A stretch of 64,000 nt of DNA. Origin: an uncultured Chloroflexia bacterium (GTDB lineage Bacteria; Chloroflexota; Anaerolineae; CG2-30-64-16). The position numbers were made by a program, and so were the translations under genes. Shown in pieces: positions 10,877-46,241 of this stretch. Positions within the stretch are counted from its first letter, which is position 1. Each line of letters begins with the position of its first letter. The stretch spans positions 256,001-320,000 of the forward strand of contig CAWEMM010000009.1 of NCBI GenBank assembly GCA_963810095.1. Direction: 5' to 3'. The notes beneath the pieces are model-generated. The model was given only the letters and a program-made list of their open reading frames with translations, ran no database searches and had not been told where the DNA came from.

Positions 10877-12380
10877 TCACTTGCGATCGTCGAACACGTG
10901 CTCGGCAAGCCTTTCGCCGAGCACGTGCTCGATTTCGGCCGCCACATGCCCGGGCAGCGGGGCCGGCCGGCTGTCCTCCATCCGGGCAACGGTCCGTTCG
11001 CGCAGCCGCACATCCAGTGCCTTGCTTCCCTGTCGCACCCAGTCCGCCATCCGGTAGCGCCGGAACAAGCCCGGCTGCCACATCTCACGGAAGTGCCGCA
11101 GCGTGTGCTCTTCCGCGATGAATGAGCCGCCCGGCCCGACGGCATGAATCACGTCGAGTGCGATTTGCTCCGCATCGAGCGTGATCCCCCGGCCGAACTG
11201 GCGCGCCTGCGAGATCAGCTCGGCACAGAACACGATCATTTCCGGAGAGGTCATCAAGCCGGCTTCGAGGTAGCCGATGTCGTGCGCCAGGTGGGTGCCC
11301 GTCAGCTGTGCGACCAGGATCGAGAGCATCGCGTCGGCCGCGGCTTGCTCATCCAGCGCCAAGCTGTCAGACATCCCCGCGTTGCCCCAGATGGGCAGGC
11401 CGTAGAAACGCGCCATCTCTGCCGACGCCACCCTGGCCAGCTCGTATTCAGGCGAGCCATAGACGCTGATCGTCGATCGCATATCCATATGGTGCGCCTG
11501 GACGCCGTAGATGAACGGCGCGCCCGGCCGCGCAAGCTGCTGGATCACGAGGCTCGAAAGCACCTCCGCGTTGCCCAGCGCCAGGCCGCCGGCCAGCGTC
11601 ACGGGCGCGGTCCCGCCCATCATGGGAGCGGGAGAGTGGATCAGCGGCAGCCCGTGTTCGGCCATGAACAACAGCTTGCCGGTTGCAGTCTCCGAGTGCT
11701 TGAGCGGCGTCGTGGGCTCCGAGTAGAGCGCCAGCGTCGGGTTGAGGCCGAGTTCCGCCATCCCGCCCGCCGCGGCCGCAGCCATCCCTACGATCGCCTC
11801 GCAGTCGGCCACGTCGTCGCACACGAACACCACGGGCTTCTCCGTGTTGGCGAGCATCAGCGCGTACTGCAGCTGATAGGGGCTCGGGGTGTCAGTATCC
11901 GCCGGTATACCCATCGAGTTCAATGGGTATCCCGGCGCATCCGCCGGTATACCCATTGACATGCAGAAGTCGATCTCGGGGAGTGCGTCGACCAGGCGGA
12001 TGCACTCCCTGACGTCGGCCGTGCGGAAGGGACGCCGCGACCCGGTGCGCGGGTCGAGGTAGTTCGGACAGTCGGAACCGGGGCCGTAGTACACATTGTC
12101 GCCGCTGAGGTGCAGCCGGGGCGCGGCGTGAGCCGCGGGCGCACAGCGTTACCTCGGACGGCGCCTGCCCGAGCGCCCAGGCCACGAGTGCCGGGGGAAT
12201 GCGGACGAGGTTTTCGTCGGTCACGAGAGCGTCGCTGCGCCGGAGCAGCTCCAGCGCACCGGGGTGGTAGATCCGGACTCCTGTCCGCCGCAGGATTTCC
12301 AGCGAAGCGTTGTGAAGCGCCTCGCAGTCGCCGTGGCCGAGCATGCGCAGGCGCGGACCGGTAAAGATGGGAGTTGTCAT
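10877..12380 (-). CDS. Trimethylamine methyltransferase (MttB) superfamily protein #1, no pyrrolysine; frameshift ~12115
   Basis: N-terminal LHNASLEILRRTGV (ORF 11892-12380); GGTAPVTLAG, GNAEVL, GSPE, DEQAA, VGPGGSF, HTLRHFR (ORF 10877-12094). Confidence 0.9.
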
Positions 12381-12384
12381 AAAA

Positions 12385-13822
12385 TCACGCGTTCCATGTG
12401 CGGCGAATGGTCTCGATCTCGTTCAAGGTGGACGCGGGGAGTTCGGGCGAGCGGGACTTGTCGAGCAGCGCGACGGTCTTCTCACGCAGGCGCTGGCCCA
12501 GGTCCTTGCCGCCCTTCCTCAGCCAATCATCCCGGCGGAGGCGGCTGTACAGCGTGGGCTGCCAAAACTCCTTGAAGTGCTGCAGGGTGTGCTCGGTGGC
12601 CAGGTAGGAACCCCCGGGGCCAATCTGGTCGACCAGATCGAGGGCGAACGCTTCCGGGCTCAGGTCCATCCCCGCGGTGAAGTGGCGCAGCCGGCCGATG
12701 ACGTCCGCGGTGAAGACGATCATCTCGGGGGATACCGCGAGCCCGGCCTCGACGTACCCGACGTCATGGACGAGGTGCTGGCCGCTGAGCAGAGCAACCA
12801 TTACGGAGGACGTCGCATCGGACGCGGCCTGCTCGTCCATGACGCAGCTGTCCGTGTAGCCGGCATAGCCGAAGTGGGGCAGGTCATAGTAGCGGGCCAT
12901 CTCGGTCACCGCGGCCCGCGCCAGCTCGAACTCGGGCGCGCCGTACACGGCGATGGTCGTCCGCATGTCCATGTGGTGCAGCCCGCACCCATACACGAAC
13001 GGCGCGCCCCGCCGCACGAGTTGGTGGATGACCAGCCCGGAGAGCAGTTCCGCGTTGCCCAGGGCCAGCGCGGCGGCCAGCGACATGGGCGCCGCGCCGC
13101 CCATCATGGGCGAGGCCTGGTGGACGATGGGCAGCCCGACCTCGGCCATATACATGAGTTTCTCGGTCGAATCCTCGCCGTGCAGCAGGGGCGTGGTGGG
13201 CTGCCCGTAGCCCACCAGGTTCGGGTTCAGGCGCAGCTCGTCCATGCCCCCGGCCGCCGCGGCTGCCATGCCCACGATTGCCTCGCACTCCGCCCGGCTG
13301 CCCAGGGTGAACGCCAGCGGCTTCGTCGTGTTTTCCAGCATGAGCGCAAACTCGTCGCAGTACGGTGCGCGCGGGTTCAGGTCCGAGGGCATCCCCATGG
13401 ACATACAGAAGTCCATTTCGGGCAGCGCGTCCACCAGCCGCACGCACGCAATCACGTCGGCCTCCGTGAATGGCCGGCGCTCGCCGCTCCGTCGGATCCA
13501 GGTAGTTCGGGCACGCCGAACCGGTGCCGAAGCTGACCTCGCGCCCCTCCAGGCGAACTGCAACCTCCGTGCTGCCCCGCTTGCAGAGCGCGATCCGGGA
13601 CGGGGGGCCCGTGAGCGCCCACTCGATCAGCGCAGGGGGGAAGCGCACCAGGCTGCCATCCGTGATGATGGCGCCGGCGTCTTTGAGCAGCCCGAGGGCG
13701 CGCGGGTGGTCGACGCGCACGCCCGTGCGGCGCAGGATCTCGAGGGATGCGTGGTGCACCGCCTCGCACTGGTCCCGTGTGAAGAAGGCGAACTGCGGTG
13801 TGGCGTGGGAACTGTGCGACAT
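12385..13822 (-). CDS. MttB superfamily methyltransferase #2, no pyrrolysine; frameshift ~13495
   Basis: MSHSSH...VHHASLEILRRTGV in one frame, then GGAAPMSLAA, GNAELL, GAPE, DEQAA, IGPGGSYL in ORF 12385-13563. Confidence 0.9.
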
Positions 13823-13852
13823 GCTGGCCTCTTGTGTCTGAATTGGGGACTG

Positions 13853-13888
13853 GCGACACCGCGGTTCTGTCAGAAACCCGGCGTCTCG
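13853..13888. repeat. Degenerate family C palindrome
   Basis: GCGACACCGCGGTTCTGTCAGAAACCCGGCGTCTCG, intergenic hairpin resembling the AGAAACCnGGTTTCT dimers. Confidence 0.45.
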
Positions 13889-13899: not shown

Positions 13900-15033
13900 T
13901 CAGGAATGATGATAGGCTTCGTCGGTCTCGTAGAGCTCGTGGGCCCGCGCGACGGCATCCCAGTTCAGCTCGAAGCCGAGTCCCGGGCGCAGCGCCGCCG
14001 CGGCTTCGAGCTTCCCCTGGATGGGCGTCAGGTCGGGCGAGGCGAGGATGTCTTCGGCGAGCAGTTGGTGCATGATCTGGTTGCCGTCCGCGAGGTTGGG
14101 CAGGGTCAGCGCAATCTGGTGCTGTGCCAGGTCGGTCATGCCCGTGACGGATTGGCCGTGCAGGCAAATGGCGATGCCGGCCGCTTCTGCGATTGCCGCG
14201 GCCTTCTTGAACGCAAGCAGCCCGCCGGTCTCGTGGAAAGACAGCACGACCAGGTCCGCGGCTTGCTGGCGGCAGACCTCGTAGACATCGTGCAGCGAGT
14301 AGACCGCCTGGTCGGCCGCGATCGGGATTGGCGAAGCATCGTGGACTTGCTTGAGCGCAGCCAGGCTTTGCGCGGGGGTGGGTTGCTCGACAAACTCGGG
14401 CTCGAACTGCGCCAGCCGGCGGATCATGTAGAGCGCAGTTCGCACGTCCCACGCCTCGTTGGCATCCAGCCGCAGCTTCCGGTCCCCGATGGCGCCGCGC
14501 ACCGCCCGCACGTTTGCGAGGTCCTTCTGTTCGCCCCGGCCTACTTTGATGTAGATGACCCCGTAGCCTTCCTCGGCCATGCGGTGCGCGTCCTCGGCCA
14601 GTTCGTCGGACGTGTCGCCCTGCGGAAACCCGAAGTAGTCCACGGCCGCATGGTACGCGCCGCCGAGCAGTTGGTGCAGCGGCGAGCCGGTCGCCTTGCC
14701 GATCACGTCCCACAGCGCCATCTCGACGCCCGCGAGGGTCAAGCCCGCAAAACGCGGGTTATGCGAGAAGCCGCCGAGGAAGCGGGCCTCATGCATCAAC
14801 CGCTCGACGTCGAACGGGCTGCGTCCCTCAAAGAGCGGCGCGACGCCTTGCAGCGCGGCGAGCGCGGTGTCGGCCGGCCGGCCCACGGTCGTCTCGCCGT
14901 ACCCGCTGATGCCCTCGTCCGTCTCCACCTCGATCAGCAGGTTGACCGCCCCCGTGTCCACCCGTCCGGCCCAGTGATACGGCTTCTTGAACCGGAGTGC
15001 CAGCGGTGTCGCGCGCAGCGCAATAATCTTCAT
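13900..15033 (-). CDS. Mandelate racemase/muconate lactonizing enzyme (enolase superfamily) protein
   Basis: Capping domain GYGE and ALWDVIGK...LLGG; metal ligands DANE, EQP, ADQ; C-terminal RPGLG. Confidence 0.92.
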   Translation of the reverse strand: MKIIALRATPLALRFKKPYHWAGRVDTGAVNLLIEVETDEGISGYGETTVGRPADTALAALQGVAPLFEGRSPFDVERLMHEARFLGGFSHNPRFAGLTLAGVEMALWDVIGKATGSPLHQLLGGAYHAAVDYFGFPQGDTSDELAEDAHRMAEEGYGVIYIKVGRGEQKDLANVRAVRGAIGDRKLRLDANEAWDVRTALYMIRRLAQFEPEFVEQPTPAQSLAALKQVHDASPIPIAADQAVYSLHDVYEVCRQQAADLVVLSFHETGGLLAFKKAAAIAEAAGIAICLHGQSVTGMTDLAQHQIALTLPNLADGNQIMHQLLAEDILASPDLTPIQGKLEAAAALRPGLGFELNWDAVARAHELYETDEAYHHS

Positions 15034-15055: not shown

Positions 15056-16003
15056 CTACTTGTTGACCCGGATTCGGGGATTGAGTACGCCGTAGAGCAG
15101 GTCGGCCGCCAGGTTGGCCACGCAGAAGATGGCGACCACGACCATGCTGCAGGCCTGGATGAGGATCAGGTCGCGGCGTTGGATCGCGTAGACGAGCAGC
15201 CGGCCCAGGCCCGGATAGCCGAAAAGCTGCTCCGTGACGATCAGCCCACCGATCAGGAAGCCGATGCCCATGGCGACGATAGTGACCGTCGGCAAGAGCG
15301 AGTTGCGCAGCACGTGCTTCGTCAGCACCTGGTTCTGGGGCAGGCCCTTCAACTCAGCCGCCCGCACATAGTCCGTCTTCAGCACGTCGATGGTGCTGGC
15401 GCGCGTCATGCGCGACACGTAGCCCAGGCTGGTGAGGCTGACGGCAATCGCCGGCAGGATGAGGTAGGGCAGCGCGTCCTTGAACGAGGTGTCGGGCTGG
15501 ATCGACGAGTTTGCCGGCAGCCACTTCAGCCCGAGCGCGAACACCGCAATCAGGATGAGGCCGGTGACGAACTCGGGCAGCCCGACGAAGGCCATCGTCA
15601 CGGCCGAAATGCCCTGGTCGACGGCCTTCTCGCGTTTCAGCGCGGCGACCACGCCGAGCAGGATGCCAAGCGGGACATAGAACAGCAGGGCCACCGTCGC
15701 GAGCATGGCCGAGTTGCGCAGCCGGCTCATGATCATGGGCATCACCGCCTGCTTGCTCACCATCGACACGCCCCAGTCGCCCCGCACGAAGTGCGTCAGC
15801 CAGTCAAAGTATTGCATGTAGACGGGCCGGTTCAGCCCGAGCTCTTCGCGCAGGTTCGCGACCGCTTCCTTGGTGGCGAACTGGCCGAGCATGACCTGGG
15901 CCACGTCGCCGGGCAATAGCTGCGTCGCGGCGAAGATGACGATCGATGCCAACAGCATGGTGAGGACGATGAAGCTGATGCGCCGCAAAAGATAGGTCGT
16001 CAT
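15056..16003 (-). CDS. Peptide/nickel-type ABC permease (DppB/OppB-like)
   Basis: MTTYLLRR start overlapping the upstream stop; LPGD, LGLNRP, EAA-like DYVRAAELKGL, FGYPGLG. Confidence 0.92.
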   Translation of the reverse strand: MTTYLLRRISFIVLTMLLASIVIFAATQLLPGDVAQVMLGQFATKEAVANLREELGLNRPVYMQYFDWLTHFVRGDWGVSMVSKQAVMPMIMSRLRNSAMLATVALLFYVPLGILLGVVAALKREKAVDQGISAVTMAFVGLPEFVTGLILIAVFALGLKWLPANSSIQPDTSFKDALPYLILPAIAVSLTSLGYVSRMTRASTIDVLKTDYVRAAELKGLPQNQVLTKHVLRNSLLPTVTIVAMGIGFLIGGLIVTEQLFGYPGLGRLLVYAIQRRDLILIQACSMVVVAIFCVANLAADLLYGVLNPRIRVNK

Positions 16004-18145
16004 CGGGGCGCCCCTCCTTCGCTGCCTGCCTGCGGCGCCGTTTGCGACGCCGTTTGCAGAGCCGCCAACTGGGCCGCCGGGATGTGGCAGCAGATGTGGT
16101 GGTCGCCGCCCAGGTCCTGCCACGGTGGTTCCTGCGTTTCGCAGATCGCGCCGATCTTGCGCGGGCAACGGGTGTGGAACCGGCAGCCGGTCGGGATGTT
16201 GACCGCGCTGGGCACGGAGCCGTGCAGCCGAATCCGCTCCTGCTGTGCGTCCGGGTCGGGGATGGGGATGGCCGAGAGCAGGGCTTCGGTGTAGGGATGG
16301 AACGGCGGCGAGAACACGGCTTGCGGCGGCCCTGATTCCCACAGCCGCCCCAGATAGACGACGCCGATCCAATCCGAAAGGTGCAGGACGGCCGCCAGGT
16401 CGTGCGAGATGAACAGGTACGAGGTTCGTTGGGTAGCCTGCAACGCCCGCAGCAGGTTCATCAGCGATGCCTGCACCGACACGTCGAGCGAAGAGATCGG
16501 CTCGTCGAGGATCATCAGGCTGGGGTCGGCGGCAAAAGCCCGCGCAATCGCCACCCGCTGCTTTTCGCCGCCGCTCAGCTCGTGCGGCAGCCGGGTAATG
16601 TAGTCCTCCGGCAGGTTGACGGCCGCAAACAACGCCCGCACTCGGGCCGGGATTTCCTGCTTGGGGGTCTTGCCGAGCAGGATCAGGGGCCGGGCCACGC
16701 TGTCGCCGACGGTGTGTTGTGGGTTGAGCGAAGCATCCGGGTTCTGGAAGACCATCTGGAGCTTCTTCAGCTGGCTTGGCGTCCTGCGCCGGACGCTGTA
16801 CGGCACCTTCTCGCCGGCCAGCTCGATCTCCCCGGCGGTGGCTTCTTCGAGCCCTGCGACGCAGCGTGCAAACGTGGTCTTCCCGCAGCCGCTCTCGCCC
16901 ACGATACCGAGGGTGGCGCCGCCGCGCACCCGTAGGCTGATGTCGTCCACGGCCTTGACTGCCTTCCGCCGCCGGCGCAGGATGTCGAGGATGCTTGCGC
17001 CGCTCACCGGGAAGTACTTCTTCAGGTGTCGTGCTTCCAACACGACGGGCCCGGCCGCGCGTTCGGCGGCTTGCAGCGTTGTCGCACGTTCCTCGCGCTC
17101 CGCAGCTCTGGCGTACTGCTCCGGGTGATCGCGAAGCGCCTGCCAGCGGATGCACGCGGTGCGGTGGCCCGGCTCGGCCTCGACAAAGGGCGGCCGCGCC
17201 GCTCGGCATGCGTCCTCGGCCAGCGGGCAGCGCGGCGCAAAGATGCACCCGGGGGGCAGTTGGTCGGGCCGGGGAATGTGGCCCTGGATGGTGTTCAGCA
17301 CGATATCCCGGCCGGTCACGTCGACCCGCGGGACGCAGCCGAGCAGGCCCAGCGTGTACGGGTGGAGCATCTGCTTGAAGACCGGGCGGATGAAGCCCTC
17401 TTCCATCAACTCGCCCGCATACATCACGCCGACCCGGTTGCAGATCCGTGCGACCACACCCAAATTGTGCGTGATGTAGAGGACCGCGGTGTGGTACTCG
17501 GTGAGCAGGTCACGCACCAGGTCGAGGATGACTGCCTCGGTGGTCACGTCGAGCGCGGTGGTTGGCTCGTCCATGATGAGCAGGCGCGGGTTGGTGGTCA
17601 GCGCGATGGCGATGAGCACGCGCTGCAGCATACCGCCCGAAAGCTGGTGCGCGTACCGTCGCGCCACCGCCTCGGGATCGGCCATGCGCACCTTGCCCAG
17701 CATCTCGATCGCCTTGGCCTGCGCGTCCTGCTTCGTCATACCCAGGTGCAGCCGCGCCACCTCCGCGATCTGTTCGCCGATGACGACGGAGGGATTGACC
17801 GCCGTGTTGGGGTCCTGGTGCACCATGGTGATCTTGGCGCCCCACACCTTGCGCAGCTCGGCCCGCGACAGCCCGAGCAAGTTCGGTCCCGTCGAGCGCG
17901 ACGAGGTCGCCCTTGGCGTGCCCGTTCGCCGGCAGGTACTGGACGATGCCGCGGGCCAGCGTCGTCTTGCCCGACCCCGACTCGCCGACCAGCCCGTAGA
18001 TCTCCCCCGCGGCGACCTGCATACTGACGTTCCGGACCGTGTGCAGCGGGCCTTTCTCAGTGTCGTAGGTGATCGTCAGGTTCTGCACGTCGAGCACGGG
18101 CCGGTTTGCAGCACCGATCTGCGTGTGCACTCGTTCACCCTCCAT
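16000..18145 (-). CDS. Fused double ABC ATPase (DppD-DppF-like), frameshift ~17880
   Basis: Two Walker A motifs (GESGSGKT, GESGCGKT), two LSGG signatures and two oligopeptide C-terminal Cys motifs (GCIFAPRC, GCRFHTRC). Confidence 0.9.
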
Positions 18146-28746: not shown

Positions 28747-28750
28747 GGTT

Positions 28751-37339: not shown

Positions 37340-37884
37340 CGTCCACCTCCCTGCCGTGTCGCATCCTTCGACTTCGCCTCGTCCCTCGGGGACGGTCTCC
37401 GCTCAGACTGCTCCGAATCCTGGATCTTTGCCGCCGCGACCTTCACCGCCTCGACGATGGGGCCGTACCCGGTGCACCGGCACAGGTTACCCGAGATGGC
37501 TTCCTTGATTTCGTCGTCCGTGGGCCGCGGGTTTTGGTCGAGCAATGCTTTCGCCGCGATGATCAGCCCGCCGGTGCAGTACCCGCACTGGACCGCGCCC
37601 AGGTCGGCAAAGGCCTCCTGGAGCGGATGCGGGTGGTCGAGGGTGCCCACGCCGGCGGGCGTCAGCACCGGTAAGCCGTCGGCCTGCCAGGCGAGCGTCA
37701 GGCAGGAATTCACAGGCTGCCCGTCGAGTAGCACCGCGCATGCGCCGCAGTCGCCCTTCTCGCAGCCGTTCTTGACGTCGGTATACCCGAGATCGCGCAG
37801 CGCCTGCAGCAGGGTCACGTTCGGCGCCAGCGCGGCATAATGGGTCCGGCCGTTGACGATCAGTGTCACAACCTGTGGCTTCAT
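37336..37884 (-). CDS. 2x[2Fe-2S] subunit (CoxS/XdhC-like, enzyme 2)
   Basis: GCEKGDCGAC, QCGYCTGG, NLCRCTGY; the C-terminal tail derives from a family A repeat. Confidence 0.92.
   Translation of the reverse strand: MKPQVVTLIVNGRTHYAALAPNVTLLQALRDLGYTDVKNGCEKGDCGACAVLLDGQPVNSCLTLAWQADGLPVLTPAGVGTLDHPHPLQEAFADLGAVQCGYCTGGLIIAAKALLDQNPRPTDDEIKEAISGNLCRCTGYGPIVEAVKVAAAKIQDSEQSERRPSPRDEAKSKDATRQGGGR
37361..37411. repeat. Family A element, opposite orientation, in the 3' end of the 2Fe-2S gene
   Basis: Reverse complement GCAGTCTGAGCGGAG-hairpin-CGAAGTCGAAGGATGC; encodes QSERRPSPRDEAKSKDA. Confidence 0.78.
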
Positions 37885-38814: not shown

Positions 38815-40335
38815 TTACAGGTTGACCAGGTTCACCGGTGTCTTTGTGTCTTTGTGTTGAATGCTCTCTGCCGCGGCGAGCACCCCCCGCACGATGCTCA
38901 CATAGCCCGTGCAGCGGCACAGGTTACCGCGCAGGTAGTGCCTCACCTGGTCCTCCGTCGGTTGTGGGACCTCGGCCAGGAGGCTCTTTGCAGTCAGCAA
39001 CATGCCCGGCGTGCAGTATCCGCACTGGAACGCGGCATGGTCGATGAAGGCTTCCTGGAGCGGGTCGAGCGTGCCGTCGGCTGCCTGCAGCCCTTCCACC
39101 GTCCGGATGTCGCACCCTTCCGCCGTTACTGCCAGCACCAGGCACGCCAACACCGGCCTGCCGTCCATGAGCACGGTGCACGCGCTGCACTCGCCGATGC
39201 CGCACCCGTACTTGCTGCCGGTGAGTTGGAGCTTCTCGCGCAGGACGTTCAACAGCAACTCGTTCGCGCCCACCCGTACCCGCTGCGGTTGGCCGTTGAC
39301 ACAGAGCGTAACGGCCAGCTCTTCTCCGGGTGCGAGGGTGAGCGACTTGTTCGCGAATGCATCCTGAGCGGCGTGCCCACCTGCGGACGCGAGCGAGGTC
39401 GAAGCATGCTCGGCTGGCTGGGGGGGTGCCCAACTGTGGCTCGGCGCGCCCGCCCGCTGCCAGGCACGCAGAAGCCCATCGTGCACCATGACGCGCACGA
39501 TCTCGCGGCGATACCATGCCTGAGAGCGTATGTCGTCTATCGGGCTAACCTGCTCCGCCGCCAACTCGGCTGCCCGGGCGGCGAGTTCGGGTGTGAAGCG
39601 CTTTCCGGCCAGGAATTCCTCCGCATGGAGCGTTCGAAGCGGGGTCGGCCCGACTGAGCCAAAAGCAAGGCGAGCCGCGACGACCGTGTCGCCTTCCCGC
39701 AAGACGAGCACTGCCGCGCTCGCCTTTGCGATATCCGCCGCCACCCGGCCCATTTTCAGAAACGCGCTCCCCGCCGCCGTGCCCCCAGCCGAGGGCCAAG
39801 GGAGGAAGATTTGCGTGATGATCTCCCCGCGTTGCAGCGCACTGCGACCCGGACCGAGGAAGAACTCACCGAGTGGTACCCGGCCCTTGCCGACCGGCCC
39901 ATCGATCATGATCCACGCATCGTAAGCAAGCAGCGCGGGCGCCGTGTCGGCAGCGGGCGACGCATTGCCGATGTTCCCACCCAGCGTGCCCATACTTTCC
40001 ACCTGCCGGGTGCTGAATCCGTCGCACGCTTCGGCCAGCGCGGGGAAGTGCTGGTGTACGGATGGGTGGCCGGCGACTTCTGCGATTGTCGTCAGGGCGC
40101 CGATTTCCAGGCCCACGTCGGTGGCGCGGATGCCCGCCAGCCCCCGAATTCTCCGCAAGCTCACCAGGTGCTCGTGCGCGCCCCGTTCGATCTTCATGTG
40201 CACCAGCACGTCGGTCCCGCCCGCTATGACCTGAGCGTCGTGAGCCAGCAGCAGCTCCGATGCCTCGGCCAGTGTCGCGGGCTCGTGGTACGTGAATTGG
40301 TTGACGAGGATGTGCGTATTGGTTGCCTGGCTCAT
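38815..40335 (-). CDS. Fused FAD-binding + 2x[2Fe-2S] subunit (enzyme 3)
   Basis: AGGTD, GTLGGNIGNASPAAD, PIDDIRS; linker; GCGIGECSAC, QCGYCTPG, NLCRCTGY, all in one frame. Confidence 0.92.
   Translation of the reverse strand: MSQATNTHILVNQFTYHEPATLAEASELLLAHDAQVIAGGTDVLVHMKIERGAHEHLVSLRRIRGLAGIRATDVGLEIGALTTIAEVAGHPSVHQHFPALAEACDGFSTRQVESMGTLGGNIGNASPAADTAPALLAYDAWIMIDGPVGKGRVPLGEFFLGPGRSALQRGEIITQIFLPWPSAGGTAAGSAFLKMGRVAADIAKASAAVLVLREGDTVVAARLAFGSVGPTPLRTLHAEEFLAGKRFTPELAARAAELAAEQVSPIDDIRSQAWYRREIVRVMVHDGLLRAWQRAGAPSHSWAPPQPAEHASTSLASAGGHAAQDAFANKSLTLAPGEELAVTLCVNGQPQRVRVGANELLLNVLREKLQLTGSKYGCGIGECSACTVLMDGRPVLACLVLAVTAEGCDIRTVEGLQAADGTLDPLQEAFIDHAAFQCGYCTPGMLLTAKSLLAEVPQPTEDQVRHYLRGNLCRCTGYVSIVRGVLAAAESIQHKDTKTPVNLVNL
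39359..39409. repeat. Family A element in the FAD/FeS linker
   Basis: GCATCCTGAGCGG...GAGGTCGAAGCATGC (51 bp), encodes HASTSLASAGGHAAQDA. Confidence 0.72.
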
Positions 40336-42788
40336 GAGCGCACCTCTTCGCCGGCCAAGAAACCAGGTTTCTCGAAGAAACCTGGTTTCTGAAGCGCCGC
40401 AAGGATCTTCTCCGGCGTGATGGGCAGCTCGTAGAAGCGGACGCCAATCGCGTTGTTGATCGCATTGGCGTAGGCGGCCGCCACCGGGTTCGTCGCGGCC
40501 TCGCCGATGCCCTTGGCGCCAAACGGCCCCGTCGGCTCGAACGTGTCCGCGAAGTACGTGGTGATCGCGTTCATGCACGGCGTCTCTTCAAATCCCGGAA
40601 TCTTGGCGTCGACCATGAACCCTTTGGAAAAGAGCTGCCCGTTGCCGTCCCAGCCGTTGTCTTCGAGCAGCGCATACCCCGCGCCCTTCGACAGCCCGCC
40701 TTCCAGCTGCCCGGCGGCCATGTCCGGATTAATCACAGTTCCGCAATCACTGCCCAACGCGGCCTTGACCGTCCGGACCTGCCCCGTCCACGTGTCTACC
40801 TCGACGTCCAGAAACACCGATACGTAGGCGGGCGGGCACGACGTCGGCCGGTAGCTGACGACGCTGGCGATGGTCTTCCAGCTTTCGGTCCAGCAGCGTG
40901 TGGCCACTTCGCCGATGGTCATGCGTTTGTCGGGGATCGAGGGCACGTAGAGCACGCCCTGGCCCAGCTGCTCGTCCATCGTCAGGACCAGCGCCTCGGG
41001 CTGGACGTTCAGGAACCGCCCCGCCGTCGCAAGCAGATCGGCCTTGGCCTCCTGCACCGCCTTCACGGCCGCGCCGCCGCCCGCATACACCCCCCGGGTC
41101 GCGTGCGTGACAACGTCGTACACGGTCGTGCGGGTGCCTGCGGGCGACAGGTTCACCTTGTCCAGCGGCACACACAACCCCTCGGACACCAGCTTGGCAA
41201 TCGCTTCGAGCGTCCCGCCGCCGTGATCCATCAGTGCGGTGATGACGTCGACCGAGCCGTCCTGGTTGATCTTCACCATCGCGCCCGAGTAGTCGATCAC
41301 GTCGCCCGGCTGGGGTGCGCCCGCACTGGAGGTGTGGAACCCGCGCGCCATGCCGGTTCCCCGGCGGTAACGGGAGGGAGAATGGGACGCTGATTGGACT
41401 GCTGGATCTGATCGGTTCGCAAGATCATGCAGATCAGTTCGATCGGTTGAATCTGCGTCCCATTTGATCCCCATGATCTCGGCGCCGGTGTGCAGCAGCT
41501 CGGGCACGCCGTCAGAGCGGACAATAGAGCGCACCAGCGGGCCCTGGCCCCAGAATGTGTCCCCTTCGCCGATGTAGTTTTTGAGGCGCAGAGCGATCGG
41601 GTCGAGCCCCAGCTTTGCGGCCAGCTCGTCCATCAACGACTCCACCGCAAAGGTCACCTGCGGGTTGCCGAAGCCCTGCATCGCGCACGACGGCACCTTG
41701 TTCGTATAGACCGCAACGCCGTGGTATTTGATGTCGGGCAGGCGGTACAGCGACACGAGCCAGCCGATACACACGCCAAGGAATGAGTACGCCTGGACGA
41801 TATGGGCGCCGATATCGACGATCAGCTCCATTTCCGCGCCCAGCAAGGTCCCGTCTCTTTTAGCGGCCAGCTTGAGGCTGATCTGTGACGGGTACTTGGT
41901 GTGCTCGTTCATGTCCTCTTCGCGCGTCAGCGCGAGGCGCACGGGCCGTCGCGCCTTAAGCGCCAGGGCCGCGCAGATCGGGAGGTTCGAGTTCATCTGG
42001 ATGCTGGAGCCGAACGTGCCGCCCACGGGGATGCGTTGCACGTCGATCTTGCTGAGGGGGATGTCGAAAATCTGTCCCAGCAGGATGCGGACATTGTGGA
42101 TGGACTGGGTAGTCGCCCAGAGGGTGAGACCGCCGTCGGGCTCGGGCCGGCAGACGGCTGTCTTCGGCTCCAGCTGCGCGTGGTAAATCTTCGGGGTCTT
42201 GAAAGTCCCCTCTACAACCGTGTCCGCCTGCGAAAGCGCACTTGCCCAGTCGCCTTCGACGATCGTGCGTTCACATGCGACGTTGTTGACAACGGGGATC
42301 TGCTTCTCGCCGTGCCAGATGCTGTCGTAGATGGCCGCCGCGCCGGGTTGCATCGCCTCGACCGGGTCGGTCAGGACGGGCAGCACCTCGTACTCCACCT
42401 TGACGGCCCGCGCGGCTCGCTCGGCCAGCTCTTCCGTTTCTGCAGCCACCGCCGCGACGGGCTCGCCCAGGCGCCGCGCCTTGTCGGCCAGCACGAAGTG
42501 ATCGCGGTGCAGGGCCGAGGGGATGGTGACGATGCGCTCGTTGTAGCACGTGTGCGGCACGTCGTCCCAGGTAATCACGACTGCGCCCATGGCTTCCGCT
42601 TCGCTCGCGTCGACGCTGAGAATCCGAGCGTGCGCGTGAGGACTGCCGACGATCCGGCCGTGCAGCATGCGCGGCAGGTAGATGTCCGAGGAGTATTGTT
42701 CCTGGCCGGTGACCCGCGCGATGGCATCCTTGCGCTTTGTCACCTTCCCCAAGACGTGCCAGCCGCTGCTGGCGCCATTTTCTTCCAT
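40332..42788 (-). CDS. Xanthine dehydrogenase family molybdopterin subunit (enzyme 3, divergent motifs)
   Basis: RVTGQEQY, HAQLEP, GGTFGSS, AMQGFGNPQ, THATRG, KGIGE. Confidence 0.92.
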   Translation of the reverse strand: MEENGASSGWHVLGKVTKRKDAIARVTGQEQYSSDIYLPRMLHGRIVGSPHAHARILSVDASEAEAMGAVVITWDDVPHTCYNERIVTIPSALHRDHFVLADKARRLGEPVAAVAAETEELAERAARAVKVEYEVLPVLTDPVEAMQPGAAAIYDSIWHGEKQIPVVNNVACERTIVEGDWASALSQADTVVEGTFKTPKIYHAQLEPKTAVCRPEPDGGLTLWATTQSIHNVRILLGQIFDIPLSKIDVQRIPVGGTFGSSIQMNSNLPICAALALKARRPVRLALTREEDMNEHTKYPSQISLKLAAKRDGTLLGAEMELIVDIGAHIVQAYSFLGVCIGWLVSLYRLPDIKYHGVAVYTNKVPSCAMQGFGNPQVTFAVESLMDELAAKLGLDPIALRLKNYIGEGDTFWGQGPLVRSIVRSDGVPELLHTGAEIMGIKWDADSTDRTDLHDLANRSDPAVQSASHSPSRYRRGTGMARGFHTSSAGAPQPGDVIDYSGAMVKINQDGSVDVITALMDHGGGTLEAIAKLVSEGLCVPLDKVNLSPAGTRTTVYDVVTHATRGVYAGGGAAVKAVQEAKADLLATAGRFLNVQPEALVLTMDEQLGQGVLYVPSIPDKRMTIGEVATRCWTESWKTIASVVSYRPTSCPPAYVSVFLDVEVDTWTGQVRTVKAALGSDCGTVINPDMAAGQLEGGLSKGAGYALLEDNGWDGNGQLFSKGFMVDAKIPGFEETPCMNAITTYFADTFEPTGPFGAKGIGEAATNPVAAAYANAINNAIGVRFYELPITPEKILAALQKPGFFEKPGFLAGEEVRS
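40358..40390. repeat. Family C palindrome dimer in the 3' end of Mo subunit 3
   Basis: AGAAACCAGGTTTCTCGAAGAAACCTGGTTTCT, encodes KPGFFEKPGF. Confidence 0.82.
41381..41464. repeat. Family B element (84 bp) in-frame inside Mo subunit 3
   Basis: AATGGGACGCTGATT...AATCTGCGTCCCATT; encodes KWDADSTDRTDLHDLANRSDPAVQSASHS. Confidence 0.82.
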
Positions 42789-42817
42789 CACGCCTCCATT
42801 GGCGGGTGGCGATAAAC

Positions 42818-42884
42818 CACAAAGGCGCAAAGACACGAAGACCTACAAAGGCTGTGTGCCGACTGGTGTCTTCGTGTCTTTGTG
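42818..42884. repeat. Family E inverted repeat
   Basis: Perfect 15-bp IR CAAAGACACGAAGAC / GTCTTCGTGTCTTTG between pyrB and Mo subunit 3; a half copy at 38838-38856 encodes HKDTKT. Confidence 0.7.
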
Positions 42885-42889: not shown

Positions 42890-43819
42890 CTACTCCGCGC
42901 CCAGCACGAGTGCCAGGAGTGCCATGCGGACGAAGACGCCGTTGCCCGCCTGGCGGAAATAGGCCGCGTTTGGCAGGCCGTCGACGTCGGTCGCGATCTC
43001 GTTGATCCGCGGCAGTGGGTGCAGCACCGTCACATCTGGCCGCAGCCGCTCCACCATCTCCCGGTTCAGCACGTACGCGTCCTTCAGCCGTTCATATTCC
43101 GCGACGTCTGCGAAGCGCTCCTTCTGGATGCGCGTCATGTAAAGGACGTCAGCATTCGGCAGCGCAGCCTCCAGGCTGTCGGTCTCTTCCACCGCGAACC
43201 CGCGGCCCCGCAGTCGCTCGACCACTTCGGCCGGCATGCGCAACGCATCGGGGGCCACACAGATCAGCTTGCAGTCGTAGTGCTTGTAGATCTCCACGCC
43301 TGCGTGCACGGTGCGCCCGTTCTTCAGGTCGCCCACCAGCACGATCGTGTTGCCTTCGACCCTGCCGCGCTCCTGGCGGATGGTGTACAGGTCGAGCAGG
43401 GCCTGCGTGGGATGCTGACCCGCGCCGTCGCCGCCGTTTAGCACGGGCGCGTTCGCCACATTGGCTGCTTCGCCGGCCGAGCCGATGCGCGGGTGGCGCA
43501 TGGCGATGACGTCGACGTATTGGTCGATGGTGCGGATGGTGTCGGCAAGGGTCTCGCCTTTGGCCACCGAGGTCGACTCGGCCGACGAGAAACCGACGAC
43601 CGAGCCCCCCAGCCGGTGCATGGCCGTTTCAAAGGACAGCCGGGTGCGGGTGCTGGGCTCAAAAAAGAGGGCGGCCAGAACCGCGCCCTTCAGTACTTCC
43701 AGGCTGCGCTGTTTGCGCAACCGGTCGCGGTACTGATCGGCGAGTTCCATGATCATCTCGATCTCGCCGCGGCTAAACTGCGCGCCGTCGAGAATGTCCT
43801 TACCCTTCAACGTCGACAT
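42890..43819 (-). CDS. pyrB: Aspartate carbamoyltransferase catalytic subunit
   Basis: FFEPSTRTRLSFE, KGETLADT, HPTQALLD, GDLKNGRTVH, YMTRIQKER, HPLPR. Confidence 0.93.
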   Translation of the reverse strand: MSTLKGKDILDGAQFSRGEIEMIMELADQYRDRLRKQRSLEVLKGAVLAALFFEPSTRTRLSFETAMHRLGGSVVGFSSAESTSVAKGETLADTIRTIDQYVDVIAMRHPRIGSAGEAANVANAPVLNGGDGAGQHPTQALLDLYTIRQERGRVEGNTIVLVGDLKNGRTVHAGVEIYKHYDCKLICVAPDALRMPAEVVERLRGRGFAVEETDSLEAALPNADVLYMTRIQKERFADVAEYERLKDAYVLNREMVERLRPDVTVLHPLPRINEIATDVDGLPNAAYFRQAGNGVFVRMALLALVLGAE

Positions 43820-43869: not shown

Positions 43870-44682
43870 TCAGAACTGTTGGTTCTGCGTCCCATTGTGC
43901 CTTATGGGTGCAAGCTCCTTCGGGCTGCCCAGCAGCACCGAAACATGGGCCGCTGCGTCACAGCAGAGGCGGACGAAGCGCTGCGCCTCATCCTGGCTGA
44001 AGCGCACCGTTGGGCCTGCTACGCCCAGCGCCGCGACGACGGTCCCTTCCCAATTGCGGATCGGCGTGGCAATGCCCCACGCGCCCAGGTCAGTTTCCTC
44101 GTAGCTCAAGGCGTAGCCACACTGGCGGATGTGCGCCAACTCGCGGTGGAGCGCAGCGGGGTCGGTGATGGTCTCGTCGCAGTAGCGCGGGAGGCCCTTC
44201 TGGCTTATGATGGTGGCGATTTCGGCTTCTGGCAGGAAGGCCATGAGCACTTTTGACGACGCGCCCGCGTGGGGCGCGCGGCGGGCGCCCACATCGAGCG
44301 CAATCCGCACCGAGTGGTTCGTCTCGATTTTGTCGATGCACACCACTTCGCCGTCGTGGTACTCCGTCAGGAGCACCGTCTCGCCCGTCGTCTCCGCGAG
44401 GTCGCGCAGCACGGGCAGGGCGACGTGCCGGACGCCGGTGCTTTCCGCCGCCAGGCTGCCCCAGATGAACAAGCGATGGCCGAGCCGCCATTTACTATCC
44501 TCGTGCCCGCGGCGCAGCAAGCCGTGGCGCTCCAGCCCGACGAGGAAACGGTGCAGCGTGCTTTTGGGTAGGGCGAGACGCGCGCTCAGCTCGGACAACG
44601 ACCAGGCGGGGCGGTCCTTTGAGAAGCAGTCGAGGACGTCGACCATCCGATCGATGGTCCGCACGGAGGAAGGATCGTCCAA
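43870..44682 (-). CDS. IclR family transcriptional regulator
   Basis: HTH SLSELSARLALPKSTLHRFL; TGETV, GASSKVLMA, IRQCGYA, IATPI. Confidence 0.95.
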   Translation of the reverse strand: MDDPSSVRTIDRMVDVLDCFSKDRPAWSLSELSARLALPKSTLHRFLVGLERHGLLRRGHEDSKWRLGHRLFIWGSLAAESTGVRHVALPVLRDLAETTGETVLLTEYHDGEVVCIDKIETNHSVRIALDVGARRAPHAGASSKVLMAFLPEAEIATIISQKGLPRYCDETITDPAALHRELAHIRQCGYALSYEETDLGAWGIATPIRNWEGTVVAALGVAGPTVRFSQDEAQRFVRLCCDAAAHVSVLLGSPKELAPIRHNGTQNQQF

Positions 44683-44729
44683 ATCACACCATTCATTCGA
44701 AATAGTGGAACGGCATTCGATCTAGTAGT

Positions 44730-44758
44730 ATGATAACACCTTGTGAAACCGGTGTCAA
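44730..44758 (-). promoter_or_regulatory. Sigma70-type promoter for iclR and the catabolic operon
   Basis: Minus strand TTGACA-N17-TATCAT with extended -10 TG; overlapping imperfect palindrome TGAAACCGGTGTCA (44744-44757); candidate operator TTCGAAATAGTGGAAC near 44696-44711. Confidence 0.7.
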
Positions 44759-44807
44759 TAACCTTTTCGCCCTGACGAAATGAGTCGGTCGCACCGGGGG
44801 AGCGTGG

Positions 44808-46241
44808 ATGGAACGGATAACCAGCCGCCGGCCGCGTCTATCGGTCCTGTCGGTCGAGGACCTGCAGGAGGTGCACGCAGCGTCGCTCCAGGTTCTTGCC
44901 GAGGTGGGTTTGCGCGTCGATGCGCCCGCCGCGCGGCAGGTGCTGCACCAGGCCGGCGCCCGCACGGGAGGGGCCCGCACTGACGGCGCCCGCTGGTTTC
45001 TCCCGGCGGAGGTCGTGCAGGAAGCCCTTGCAGCCGCACCGCGCTCGTTCGCGCTCTTCGACCGGCTGGGCAGTCCGGCCTTCAGATGCGGCGAAGACCA
45101 AAGCCGGTTCGGCATCGGCGTAACGAACCTCTATTACGAGGACCCCGGCACCGGCGAAATCAGCCCTTTCAGTCGCCAGCATATGGCCGCGTCGGCCCGC
45201 CTGGGCCACGCGCTCCCTCAGTACGCGCTGGTCTCGACGATTGGCGTCGTCCAGGATGAGCCGGTCGAGCGAGCCGACTTGGTCGCGACGCTCGAGATGG
45301 CGGCCAACACGAGCAAGCCGCTCGTCCTGCTCGTCTCCGATCCGGCCCAGTTCGCGCCCTGCCTTGACTTGCTCGAGTCCCTTGCCCCCCAGCTTGGCGA
45401 GCGCCCGTTCGTGCTCCCCTACGTCAACCCGATCACGCCGCTGGTCCTGAATGCTGAAACGACGGACAAGATGACCCTGGCGATCCGGCGCGGCTTCCCC
45501 CTCATCTTCTCGAACTACGGCATGGCGGGGGCATCCACGCCCATCACTCCCGCCCGCGCGCTCGTGCTGCTTAACGCGGAGTTGCTCGCCGGCCTGGTCT
45601 TCAGCCAGGCGGTGCGCCGGGGCGCACCGGTTATCCTCGGCAGCCTGCCCGCATGCTTCGACATGCGCACGATGGTCGATTTTTACGACCCACGCTCGAT
45701 CCTGGTCAACCTGGCCTGCGCCGAAATGATGGCCTACTACGGTATTCCGCACGCAGGGACTTCGGGTTCGGGCAACGGCTGGGGGCCGGATATCGTGGCC
45801 GCCGGCGAGCTCTGGCTTAACCACCTGGTCTCGGACACGAGCCTTGCGGGCCTTGTGCCCTTCGTGGGCGGCAACCTCGGTTCCAAGGTGTTTTCGCCCG
45901 CGGCAGCCGTATACGGCGCAGAGGTCATCGACCAGGTGGCCGCGTTCCGCGCCGGACTTGACCTGTCAGAGTTGGACGGCCTGCTTGCCGAGATCGCGGA
46001 GGCAGGTCCCGGCGGGAGCTTCTTCGAGAGCGCCCACACCTTGCGCCATCTCCGCACGGCTTACCACACCAGCCGCATCTTTCCTCACTACGGCCTGGAG
46101 CAGTGGCAGGCCGCGGGCCGCCCGATGGCCGAGACGCGGCTGCGCGAGGCGACGGTTGAGCTTCTCAGGTCGGCCGTGGGGCCGGAAGACCGGGATGAAG
46201 TGCTGGCGCGCGGCGAAGCCTGGCTGGCCGCTGCGAGGTAA
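44808..46241 (+). CDS. MttB superfamily methyltransferase #4 (divergent), no pyrrolysine
   Basis: VHAASLQVLAEVG, GASTPIT, NAELLAG, FDMRT, AGPGGSF, HTLRHLR. Confidence 0.88.
   Translation: MERITSRRPRLSVLSVEDLQEVHAASLQVLAEVGLRVDAPAARQVLHQAGARTGGARTDGARWFLPAEVVQEALAAAPRSFALFDRLGSPAFRCGEDQSRFGIGVTNLYYEDPGTGEISPFSRQHMAASARLGHALPQYALVSTIGVVQDEPVERADLVATLEMAANTSKPLVLLVSDPAQFAPCLDLLESLAPQLGERPFVLPYVNPITPLVLNAETTDKMTLAIRRGFPLIFSNYGMAGASTPITPARALVLLNAELLAGLVFSQAVRRGAPVILGSLPACFDMRTMVDFYDPRSILVNLACAEMMAYYGIPHAGTSGSGNGWGPDIVAAGELWLNHLVSDTSLAGLVPFVGGNLGSKVFSPAAAVYGAEVIDQVAAFRAGLDLSELDGLLAEIAEAGPGGSFFESAHTLRHLRTAYHTSRIFPHYGLEQWQAAGRPMAETRLREATVELLRSAVGPEDRDEVLARGEAWLAAAR

Follow-up and report, generated by a model that had tools for sequence, protein, structure and literature searches.

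What would a 35-kb run of co-oriented genes in the genome of an uncultured Chloroflexia bacterium degrade, and does it encode one pathway or several? The genes are located between positions 10,877 and 46,241 of a stretch of 64,000 nucleotides, referred to here as the window (contig CAWEMM010000009.1, positions 256,001 to 320,000; C9:256001-320000 in our numbering). The source assembly (GCA_963810095.1, here G000) has 16 contigs and 6.13 Mb, and is rated 88.5% complete. A previous reading of the window (the original prediction) had assigned the whole array to the anaerobic degradation of an N-methylated histidine betaine. As shown below, the cluster is a long array behind an IclR-family regulator, in which two or three modules have been combined. 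The module that we call the core (27633-43819) consists of two molybdenum hydroxylases of the xanthine dehydrogenase (XDH) family (Xdh2 and Xdh3), the IorA and IorB subunits of an indolepyruvate:ferredoxin oxidoreductase (IOR)-like enzyme, an ADP-forming acyl-CoA synthetase (ACD), an aminotransferase (AT), a hydantoinase-like cyclic amidohydrolase (Hyd) and the aspartate carbamoyltransferase (ATCase) PyrB. With a probability of around 0.4, we read this core as a catabolic operon that would act without oxygen on a heteroaromatic amino acid whose ring contains N-C-N, histidine or one of its close derivatives being the most likely candidate.

The core is conserved in related genomes

Open reading frames (ORFs) were chosen by third-position G+C, the window having around 66% G+C, and then scanned with Pfam and NCBIfam. 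For the comparison between genomes, a set of 41 Anaerolineae was used, formed by the source genome and 40 relatives, and the neighborhoods around orthologues were compared by tblastn with the window proteins. The core recurs in 15 of these 41 genomes, with its genes arranged in several ways; 15 genomes have an Xdh3 orthologue (68% identity or more) and 14 an Xdh2 orthologue (67% or more). In G013 (G013:C22:665-16299), the core is a tight plus-strand operon of 12 genes, ordered Xdh3-Xdh2-IorA-IorB-ACD-AT-Hyd-PyrB. The order is MttBc-Xdh1-AT-ACD-IorBA-Hyd-Xdh2-Xdh3-PyrB-IclR in G021 (G021:C63:13181-38308), MttBc and Xdh1 being a methyltransferase and a third XDH-family enzyme described below, and IclR-Xdh3-Xdh2-IorAB-ACD in G018. 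The G012 cluster reads AT-ACD-IorBA-Xdh1-MttB-enolase-MttBc-Xdh2-Xdh3-IclR-Dpp, with Hyd-PyrB elsewhere. In G039, which belongs to another family, one contig carries IclR, a Liv-type amino-acid ABC importer, an aminotransferase of a different type, PyrB, Xdh3 and Xdh2, in such a way that the importer and the aminotransferase precede PyrB, and a second contig carries Hyd-IorAB-ACD. Further arrangements were found at L031, L032, L033, L039 and L045. An aminotransferase is present in every version of the core, even where it has been swapped for a non-orthologous type, and an IclR gene stands alongside the core in G021, G016, G018, G012, G039 and L044.

All 15 genomes bearing Xdh3 have the Hyd subfamily, 11 of them at 74% identity or more and four at 52-55%, and all 15 have a PyrB of class A or B (57-100% identity). 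By contrast, none of the 16 genomes in which PyrB (46-51% identity) lies beside an ordinary pyrC carries Xdh3. A wider spread of the core in the phylum was considered and rejected: of 400 additional Chloroflexota genomes, sampled evenly, only G089 has an Xdh3-level match (58%), and the locus there has only three XDH sets.

Three relatives have, between the genes for ACD and the aminotransferase, a conserved ORF of 278-319 amino acids that no Pfam model matches (G021:C63:20080-21039, G014:C21:97028-97966 and G016:C8:80815-81651); the window has no space for it.

Enzymes of the core and the route that they suggest

Gene content, linkage and family membership were read from the genomes, and the chemistry proposed here for each step comes from families and linkage. 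All genes are on the minus strand unless stated otherwise. The route would start with AT (27633..28818, frameshifted), a HisC-family aminotransferase that would convert histidine into imidazolepyruvate. This is the second HisC-like gene of the genome; its two frameshifted pieces score 212 and 100 bits on TIGR01141 (cut-off 276.55), and the housekeeping hisC (C12:627444) scores 311.8 bits. AT is, in this way, an extra copy of a family whose normal substrate bears an imidazole. Imidazolepyruvate would then be oxidized and decarboxylated to imidazoleacetyl-CoA by the divergent IorAB, with reduction of ferredoxin. The IorB-like subunit (30889..31485; PF01558) reaches 121 bits on TIGR03334 against a cut-off of 206, and the frameshifted IorA-like subunit (31482..33433) reaches 327 and 196 bits on two pieces against 651 for TIGR03336, so that both are assigned at family level. 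A second, canonical IOR is encoded at C6:1059334 (382 and 291 bits), the pair of the cluster being the divergent extra copy. The next enzyme, ACD (28751..30892), is a fusion of alpha and beta subunits with the domains CoA_binding_2, Succ_CoA_lig, Ligase_CoA_2 and ATP-grasp_5 (TIGR02717, 423 bits, below the cut-off), and would free imidazol-4-ylacetate from its CoA ester with formation of ATP.

Xdh2 and Xdh3 would hydroxylate the ring at C2 and C5 with water, and tautomerization would give 5-carboxymethylhydantoin (hydantoin-5-acetate). Xdh2 has separate molybdopterin (34979..37339; PF01315, PF02738 and PF20256; 534 bits on the pucD model, below the cut-off), [2Fe-2S] (37336..37884; Fer2 and Fer2_2) and FAD (37881..38774; PF00941 and PF03450) subunits. 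Xdh3 is formed by a molybdopterin subunit (40332..42836; PF01315, PF02738 and PF20256) and a fused small subunit (38815..40335) in which the FAD part precedes the FeS part: FAD_binding_5 at residues 13-180, CO_deh_flav_C at 191-290, Fer2 at 346-393 and Fer2_2 at 412-485. The fused small subunit of XdhA has the opposite domain order. The molybdenum, [2Fe-2S] (PF00111 and PF01799) and FAD parts are complete in Xdh2 and Xdh3, as they are in Xdh1, and none of the three reaches the cut-off of any named equivalog, among them XdhA, pucD, Se-dependent XDH, 4-HBCR and PaoC. The proposal of 5-carboxymethylhydantoin as the intermediate follows from its neighbors in the route, because AT, IOR and ACD would leave an acetate side chain and the ring opening must give an aspartate skeleton. 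It corresponds to imidazol-4-ylacetate after two hydroxylations and no reduction, which fits an operon in which two hydroxylases but no reductase are encoded. A full-text search that leaves most subscription journals outside found no paper describing imidazoleacetate or hydantoin-5-acetate as part of an anaerobic route.

Opening of the 5-carboxymethylhydantoin ring to N-carbamoyl-aspartate would be the role of Hyd (33512..34890, frameshifted at its 5' end). Its binuclear metal site is complete, with HxH, Lys, His, His and Asp aligned, and its scores against PDB proteins are 224-268 bits with D- and L-hydantoinases, around 162 with allantoinases and at most 130 with dihydroorotases, which places it in the hydantoinase/dihydropyrimidinase branch. 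The 5'-truncated ORF gives 360 bits on TIGR02033 (cut-off 393), and only 204-207 bits on two ErtD models with cut-offs of 600-650. Its nearest relatives among named records all come from metagenome-assembled genomes (MAGs) of Anaerolineae or Anaerolineales. Hyd belongs to a subfamily linked to PyrB: in the 80 loci retrieved with it, PyrB is also encoded in 9 of the 16 whose Hyd has at least 47% identity, against none of the 64 with 43% or less. The pair also appears in MAGs labelled Bipolaricaulota/Acetothermia and Thermotogae. In addition, a 235-residue Asp/Glu/hydantoin racemase (PF01177) is encoded directly upstream of Hyd at three loci (G005:C23, G017:C3 and L035), with a canonical IOR ahead in all three and ACD also in G005 and G017. 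The linkage to PyrB and this neighboring racemase are the two observations that point to Hyd as a candidate carboxymethylhydantoinase (EC 3.5.2.4); the full-text search yielded no paper assigning a gene to that activity, and no NCBIfam model of that name matched Hyd.

In the last step, PyrB (42890..43819) would cleave N-carbamoyl-aspartate with phosphate into aspartate and carbamoyl phosphate, which the single carbamate kinase of the genome (C6:1272980, 365.9 bits) would turn into ATP; alternatively, PyrB could pass N-carbamoyl-aspartate into pyrimidine synthesis. The protein is a canonical ATCase catalytic chain, with 366 bits on TIGR00670 (cut-off 237) and 353 bits with the Pyrococcus abyssi ATCase. 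Alignment to 1ml4 shows the motifs STRTR, HPTQ, RxQxER and HPLPR, which we take to be those binding carbamoyl phosphate and aspartate. The idea that PyrB is an extra, catabolic copy was discarded after the copy-number survey, the second-best hit of the genome (C6:1270867) being part of a ygeW-like cluster. The features expected of a dedicated catabolic carbamoyltransferase are missing, since there is no second canonical ATCase in the nine genomes with the cluster-type PyrB and no carbamate kinase in the cluster.

The MttBc-Xdh1 pair and the accessory genes

Next to the core lies a second module (22412-27536), formed by MttBc and Xdh1. MttBc (22412..23866) is an intact non-pyrrolysine methyltransferase of the MttB superfamily (PF06253, 327.9 bits, profile positions 26-493, full length), encoded by an uninterrupted ORF of 484 codons with a Cys at the pyrrolysine position of 7xcl. 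It is about equally near to MtgB (194 bits) and MttB (187 bits), and on the TIGR02369 equivalog it scores 375 against a cut-off of 525. The residues of MtgB that bind glycine betaine are Y97, R312, H348 and F356, according to the accessible part of PMC13080624; MttBc has S, F, H and G at these positions, keeping one of the four. Xdh1 is composed of a FAD subunit (23882..24787; PF00941 and PF03450) and a fused [2Fe-2S]-molybdopterin subunit (24784..27536), the latter frameshifted near 26750 in such a way that Fer2, Fer2_2 and part of the hammerhead domain are in one ORF and MoCoBD_1 and MoCoBD_2 in the other. Its orthologues in G014 and G021 are intact, with 1006-1015 residues.

The two genes travel together. 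They adjoin each other in all nine genomes whose surroundings were fetched (G000, G001, G002, G003, G005, G014, G016, G019 and G021), and the pair occurs without Xdh2 and Xdh3 in G002, G003, G005 and G006, all of the same genus; in G005, it is followed by a Dpp-type importer. Conversely, the core is found without an MttBc orthologue. A search with MttBc as query gave no MttB match at E <= 1e-60 in G013 (93% complete), which has the core operon, and G018 (97%) and G039 (100%) carry the core and gave matches of only 34-45% identity to MttBc. The pair would thus act as a separable feeder, which probably converts an N-methylated relative of the substrate for the core. The partners of a three-component MttB system, a corrinoid protein and a methyl-corrinoid:tetrahydrofolate methyltransferase, were not found in the window, and may be encoded elsewhere: the genome has seven MttB genes and 22 hits for the B12-binding domain, none of these hits inside C9:256001-320000 and the nearest at C9:106931.

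The remaining genes of the array (10877-22374) start with an MmgE/PrpD-family protein (PrpD, 20896..22374; PF03972 and PF19305) and a family-5 solute-binding protein frameshifted into two pieces (19134..20810; PF00496 profile positions 5-200 and 263-359 in two ORFs). The other components of the importer are a DppC/NikC-type permease (18155..19075; PF00528, Opp2C/NikC-like), a fused double ATPase of the DppD/DppF type (16000..18120; two ABC_tran and two oligo_HPY stretches, with the Walker-A N-terminus read in another frame at 17860-18160) and a DppB/NikB/Opp2B-type permease (15056..16003; PF00528 and PF19300; 273 bits on the Opp2B nickel permease model, below the cut-off). An enolase-superfamily (MR/MLE) enzyme comes next (13900..15033; PF13378 and PF02746; no NCBIfam model at cut-off), followed by the methyltransferases MttBb (12385..13831; PF06253, 216 bits) and MttBa (10877..12380; PF06253, 219.6 bits, profile positions 116-495). 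The short ORFs of MttBa and MttBb made us consider pyrrolysine or truncation, both rejected when their N-terminal pieces were located in another frame (12123-12380 and 13472-13831, respectively). MttBb has an orthologue in G014 with 76% identity. On the plus strand, the sequence-divergent MttBd (44808..46241; PF06253, 197 bits) occupies the same position only in G001, of the same genus, with around 67% identity, and is missing from the 6.6 kb that were compared on the far side of iclR in G021. MttBa to MttBd are all full-length PF06253 proteins without an in-frame amber codon.

PDB searches gave no hint about the ligands of the enolase-family protein, PrpD or the solute-binding protein. The closest solved chain of the enolase-family protein is 2pgw_A (358 bits), an uncharacterized "muconate cycloisomerase" for which a literature search found no functional study; the sole match of PrpD is IDS-epimerase (81 bits), and the binding protein matches AapF, AgaA, YliB and NikA weakly (69-75 bits). 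PrpD recurs beside the binding protein or MttBc in G014, G019 and L044. Neither the fetched flanks of the G021 core (13 and 6 kb) nor the G013 contig contain MttBa, MttBb, the enolase-family gene, the Dpp importer or PrpD, and for this reason these genes look like an add-on to the core, which could serve the uptake and pre-processing of betaine-like or opine-like compounds.

Several observations were made around MttB genes in these genomes. Between the accessory block and MttBc, G014 has (C21:81000-90000) two opine-dehydrogenase-like genes, an ornithine-cyclodeaminase/mu-crystallin gene, Fer4 proteins, a serine-dehydratase-alpha-like gene and one more MttB. In G014 and G002, MttB genes adjoin CobW and Fer4 genes. 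The family is expanded, with 19, 12 and 10 matches at E <= 1e-60 in G011, G014 and G015, often in tandem. An MttB-family gene of the source genome (G000:C12:509195-510478) contains one in-frame TGA, which may encode selenocysteine or result from an error of the assembly.

Layout and assembly of the array

The Pfam and NCBIfam scans found between 10877 and 46241 all the families that had been named for the array: four MttB, an enolase-family enzyme, an ABC importer, PrpD, three XDH, HisC, ACD, IorAB, a hydantoinase, PyrB and IclR. The array consists of 23 minus-strand genes, from 44682 down to 10877, in the order IclR, PyrB, Xdh3, Xdh2, Hyd, IorA, IorB, ACD, AT, Xdh1, MttBc and PrpD, and then the binding protein, the DppC-like permease, the fused DppD/F-like ATPase, the DppB-like permease, the enolase-superfamily gene, MttBb and MttBa; MttBd is divergent. 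The seven ATGA overlaps noticed previously (16000, 24784, 30889, 31482, 37336, 37881 and 40332) are all real, and the remaining gaps measure 4-96 nucleotides. The first gene encodes the IclR-family regulator (43870..44682; PF09339 and PF01614), and upstream of it there is a sigma-70-like promoter match (44730..44758, minus strand; TTGACA-17-TATCAT, 11 of 12 positions plus an extended TG; a pattern match only), the one promoter-like site found against 0.2 expected. In these respects, the original prediction described the locus correctly, and it overlooked the frameshifts.

At least 8 of the 23 genes are interrupted: MttBa, MttBb, the binding protein, the FeS-Mo subunit of Xdh1, AT, IorA, and Hyd and the fused ATPase at their 5' ends. 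Short-read contigs from freshwater sediment metagenome runs show indels of one nucleotide at 28346, 32831 and 34747. When these were introduced in silico, AT grew from 239 to 397 residues (base 28346 removed; contig of run X2), IorA from 527 to 655 (a G added behind 32831; contig of run X4) and the Hyd frame from 443 to 480. Since each of these indels restores a full-length frame, the three breaks are likely errors of the assembly. They represent three of the four breaks in the stretch compared, at a read depth of 2.5-3.8 and with each indel taken from one or two contigs, and five other breaks (MttBa, MttBb, the binding protein, Xdh1 and the ATPase) have no short-read cover. Intact orthologues of the broken genes exist in G013, G014 and G021; G001, of the same genus, is also fragmented, but at different places. 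From these comparisons, we take the frameshifts as assembly errors and not as decay.

Weighing the histidine route against other readings

A number of observations weigh against a dedicated histidine route. IorA, IorB, ACD, Hyd and all the XDH subunits are below every named NCBIfam equivalog cut-off, and consequently their specificities are not fixed by their families. The role of Xdh1 is not explained by the route. The PyrB of the cluster is the sole canonical ATCase in the nine class A genomes, with no class B or C copy besides, so it must also make pyrimidines and its presence could be biosynthetic; carbamate kinase is in another cluster and not with PyrB, and we know of no catabolic ATCase. 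In other phyla, Hyd-PyrB sits among unrelated genes, like a housekeeping pair. Hyd as an ordinary dihydroorotase was considered and finds no support in its PDB and NCBIfam scores, but a TIGR00857 search did not find an ordinary pyrC in G013, G017 and G021, where Hyd might be the dihydroorotase. Further dihydroorotase-like genes besides Hyd are present in G000, G012 and five checked genomes of other phyla.

The distribution of the Hut pathway cuts both ways. The search for the urocanase gene hutU was negative in 8 of the 15 core genomes (G013, G015-G019, G021 and G039; 93-100% complete), against 6 of the 26 without the core. That the core may have replaced Hut in some genomes is only a hint, because the genomes are related and the counts small. 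The other seven core-bearing genomes do have hutU, and the source genome has two Hut gene sets, one at G000:C6:336000-342000 (hutH, a hutI piece, hutU with 629 bits and the glutamate formimidoyltransferase gene ftcD) and another at G000:C6:1754000-1760000 (hutH and hutU, 944 bits, adjoining glnA and near dnaA). With these sets, a further route for free histidine is not obviously needed here, and they leave room for a modified histidine, which may be the true substrate in this organism. The claim that histidine ammonia-lyase and urocanase are missing holds therefore for the cluster but not for the genome. In the window, no ammonia-lyase or trimethylamine-lyase, (thio)urocanate hydratase or imidazolonepropionase was found, and the cluster is neither a Hut nor an Ert one. 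The chemical logic from histidine through hydantoin-5-acetate to carbamoyl-aspartate gained from the synteny, the Hyd-PyrB linkage, the racemase at three loci and the partly complementary hutU, and lost from PyrB being the sole ATCase. The co-occurrence of the modules across genomes, on whose absence the original prediction would have fallen, was confirmed for the core, in shuffled orders and in the 15 genomes, but not for MttB, which is separable.

The part that found no support is the betaine as the substrate of the whole array. According to this proposal, the 35 kb encode one pathway for N-alpha-trimethylated histidine (hercynine, or ergothioneine after sulfur removal), with the MttB paralogues demethylating it to histidine. 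Some facts speak for it: both this genome and G001 have the four MttB-family genes grouped with the core, the MttBc-Xdh1 pair is contiguous with AT, ACD and Ior in G000, G001, G014 and G021, a pair 58-66% identical lies inside the G012 cluster, Xdh1 of G016 is interrupted by two contig ends that could plausibly be joined, and an MttBc-like gene of at least 66% identity is present in 12 of the 15 core-bearing genomes. The pocket of MttBc differs at three of the four ligand residues of the glycine-betaine pocket, as far as the accessible part of PMC13080624 describes it, and the smaller S (for Y97) and G (for F356) would fit a bulkier substrate. Free histidine being handled by the Hut sets, a modified histidine would justify the cluster, and no paper with both "MttB" and "hercynine" was found in a full-text search with subscription journals mostly outside it. 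However, the core occurs without an MttBc orthologue (G013, G018 and G039) and the MttBc-Xdh1 pair without the core (four genomes of the same genus), from which hercynine or ergothioneine is not required. MttBc is the sole MttB of the G021 cluster, the window lacks the corrinoid partners, and an expansion reaching 19 matches per genome (E <= 1e-60) makes chance adjacency easier. The non-pyrrolysine members described in the accessible part of PMC13080624 take quaternary amines and remove one methyl each, three removals down to a primary amine being unprecedented there. Moreover, no gene of the cluster is known to remove sulfur, the ErtD model giving 207 bits against a cut-off of 600. We regard this single pathway as quite improbable. 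More conceivable, although still doubtful, is that the same enzyme logic serves another N-heterocycle, such as a methylated purine or pyrimidine, a pyridine betaine or a non-protein heteroaryl-alanine, with Hyd acting like a dihydroorotase or dihydropyrimidinase and AT, IOR and ACD on a side branch. Xdh1, Xdh2 and Xdh3 resemble purine hydroxylases, nicotinate dehydrogenase and 4-hydroxybenzoyl-CoA reductase, all below the cut-offs; the scores of Hyd on the dihydropyrimidinase model nearly match those on hydantoinases; the genome has two more N-heterocycle clusters with XDH-like genes, amidohydrolases, carbamoyltransferases and carbamate kinase; and in G005 an adenine deaminase gene is divergent beside Xdh1-MttBc. 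This last gene is found only there, not in G002 or in the window. A canonical ATCase with all its aspartate and carbamoyl-phosphate motifs fixes the product as carbamoyl-aspartate, the acetate side chain expected from AT-IOR-ACD would suit a 5-substituted hydantoin and not dihydroorotate, no reductase is available to saturate a pyrimidine ring, and the aminotransferase is kept in every version, even when non-orthologous.

The array could also be a mosaic, in which Hyd and PyrB belong to pyrimidine biosynthesis and are placed among an aromatic-amino-acid fermentation unit (AT, IOR and ACD) and unrelated Mo hydroxylases, with the MttB and Dpp genes as independent betaine genes. The sole ATCase, the Hyd-PyrB pairs found alone among unrelated genes in other phyla and the three genomes without an ordinary pyrC agree with this, and shared descent keeps gene order, which makes synteny within one family weak evidence. 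Nevertheless, the parts have stayed together through at least four gene orders and in G039, of another family, and in 7 of 11 tier-1 loci or contigs (G000, G001, G021, G039, L031, L032 and L045) Hyd is apart from PyrB, between Xdh2 and IorA. G012 and the five checked genomes of other phyla have dihydroorotase-like genes other than Hyd, Hyd falls in the hydantoinase branch, and a PF01177 racemase has no role in pyrimidine synthesis; we find a mosaic unlikely. That the cluster is decaying and non-functional, its frameshifts being real pseudogenization, is suggested by the number of interrupted genes and by the fragmented G001, and we give it hardly any credit: genes beyond the cluster are also split in the window (for example, LigD and an aldehyde dehydrogenase), the contig indels restore the frames at three of four breaks, and the breaks of G001 are elsewhere. 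The histidine operon is the reading that we prefer for the core. Its extension to a subclade of Anaerolineae with an ATP-yielding anaerobic histidine route, which through the MttBc-Xdh1 feeder would also take N-methylated histidines (ring-methylated ones or hercynine), is a speculative proposal that we put forward only tentatively.

Other genes of the window and the genome

Two other gene clusters of the source genome share families with the array. The first, at G000:C6:1262001-1280000, is a ygeW-like cluster of the purine type with XDH FAD and Mo pieces, an M20 peptidase, carbamate kinase and a pyridoxal phosphate-dependent lyase; the frame of the M20 peptidase continues into that of a carbamoyltransferase, whose 234.6 bits on TIGR00670 are slightly below the cut-off, and a second carbamoyltransferase is present. 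The other, at G000:C9:334001-350000, 14-30 kb past the window end, has XDH Mo pieces, a carbamoyltransferase-like gene, a 2-hydroxyacid dehydrogenase piece, an M20 peptidase, three amidohydrolases (one of them 40% identical to Hyd) and a dihydroorotate-dehydrogenase-like Fe-S protein.

Outside the array, the window encodes nonhomologous end joining proteins on the minus strand (5835-9530), with Ku at 8754-9530. The LigD phosphoesterase (7840-8679) overlaps the ligase/primase-polymerase (5835-7913) in another frame, which is likely another assembly frameshift. At 55769-57631, also on the minus strand, an ORF of 620 codons contains two tandem Peripla_BP_4 sugar-binding domains, beside a ribose-type ABC permease and ATPase; a tandem duplication, or two genes read through as one, may explain it.

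Relevance of the proposed route

If the route is true, anaerobes would have a second way to degrade histidine, independent of Hut, which would have replaced the Hut pathway in several genera. It would also provide genes for the orphan activity EC 3.5.2.4, the first for a carboxymethylhydantoinase, and would extend Mo-hydroxylase chemistry to simple imidazoles. PyrB would be the first ATCase with a known catabolic role, and this in the only ATCase gene of the organism, in parallel to the catabolic ornithine enzyme and to YgeW. For the large and mostly uncharacterized MttB expansion of sediment Chloroflexota, one branch would acquire a testable function, which is relevant to what becomes of methylated nitrogen compounds in anoxic sediments. 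Even if our reading fails, the cluster is still a well-delimited conserved operon, with intact orthologues at G013:C22:665-16299 and G021:C63:13181-38308.

Comparison with known systems

The first half of the proposed route follows the fermentation of aromatic amino acids, in which aminotransferase, IOR and ACD belong to the same families and act in the same order and with the same ATP-conserving logic. There are two differences: IorA and IorB are here divergent extra copies below the IOR cut-offs, and the arylacetate, excreted in that fermentation, would here be degraded by Mo hydroxylases. Histidine-derived acyl-CoA is a known substrate type of the ACD family, and a 2-(imidazol-4-yl)acetyl-CoA synthetase from Thermococcus kodakarensis has reportedly been characterized by Awano et al. 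in 2014.

Known degradation of histidine and ergothioneine through the Hut and Ert routes employs histidase or ergothionase, (thio)urocanate hydratase, the hydantoin-5-propionate amidohydrolase ErtD and an N-carbamoyl-glutamate hydrolase. As in the route proposed here, an imidazole amino acid is taken through a 5-substituted hydantoin (or an imidazolone), and a cyclic amidohydrolase gives an N-carbamoyl amino acid. In those routes, however, the side chain of three carbons is retained and the end product is glutamate, whereas ours would shorten the chain to acetate and end in aspartate, in a cluster without ammonia-lyase or urocanase. The reaction proposed for Hyd, from 5-carboxymethylhydantoin to N-carbamoyl-aspartate, is that of the carboxymethylhydantoinase (EC 3.5.2.4) of orotate-fermenting clostridia, which Lieberman and Kornberg are said to have reported in 1954 as a side activity in orotate fermentation; the context proposed here is, in contrast, the breakdown of histidine.

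Regarding the MttB superfamily, the non-pyrrolysine methyltransferases of quaternary amines named in the accessible part of PMC13080624 are MtgB, MtpB, MtcB, MtyB and MthB. MttBc differs from such systems in having no adjacent corrinoid protein or second methyltransferase, and in having as its fixed partner an XDH-family enzyme, a type of partner not reported in the accessible parts of PMC13080624, PMC8604678 and PMC12155760.

For the second half of the route, a parallel exists in the 2,8-dioxopurine pathway for the anaerobic use of uric acid and purines by gut bacteria, encoded, as far as the accessible part of the preprint goes, by XdhAC, YgfK, SsnA, HyuA, YgeW and YqeA, along with YgeY and YgeX; after the action of XDH, the hydantoinase HyuA, phosphorolysis by the carbamoyltransferase YgeW and the carbamate kinase YqeA lead to ATP (bioRxiv 10.1101/2025.04.24.650524). 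On this description, both would share the hydroxylation of an N-heterocycle by XDH without O2, the opening of a hydantoin, the cleavage of the ureido group by a carbamoyltransferase and the gain of ATP through carbamate kinase. At the level of genes, only the XDH-like and hydantoinase-like ones are common, and the array is not a 2,8-dioxopurine cluster: it lacks YgfK, SsnA, YgeY and YgeX, and adds AT, IOR and ACD. The carbamate kinase is elsewhere, in what is apparently the ygeW-type cluster of the genome itself (C6:1262-1276 kb), and the carbamoyltransferase of the array is a canonical ATCase and not the knotted YgeW, on whose model PyrB scores 42 bits. The predicted end product would differ accordingly, aspartate here, and diaminopropionate and pyruvate in the 2,8-dioxopurine pathway, as described in the accessible part of the same source.

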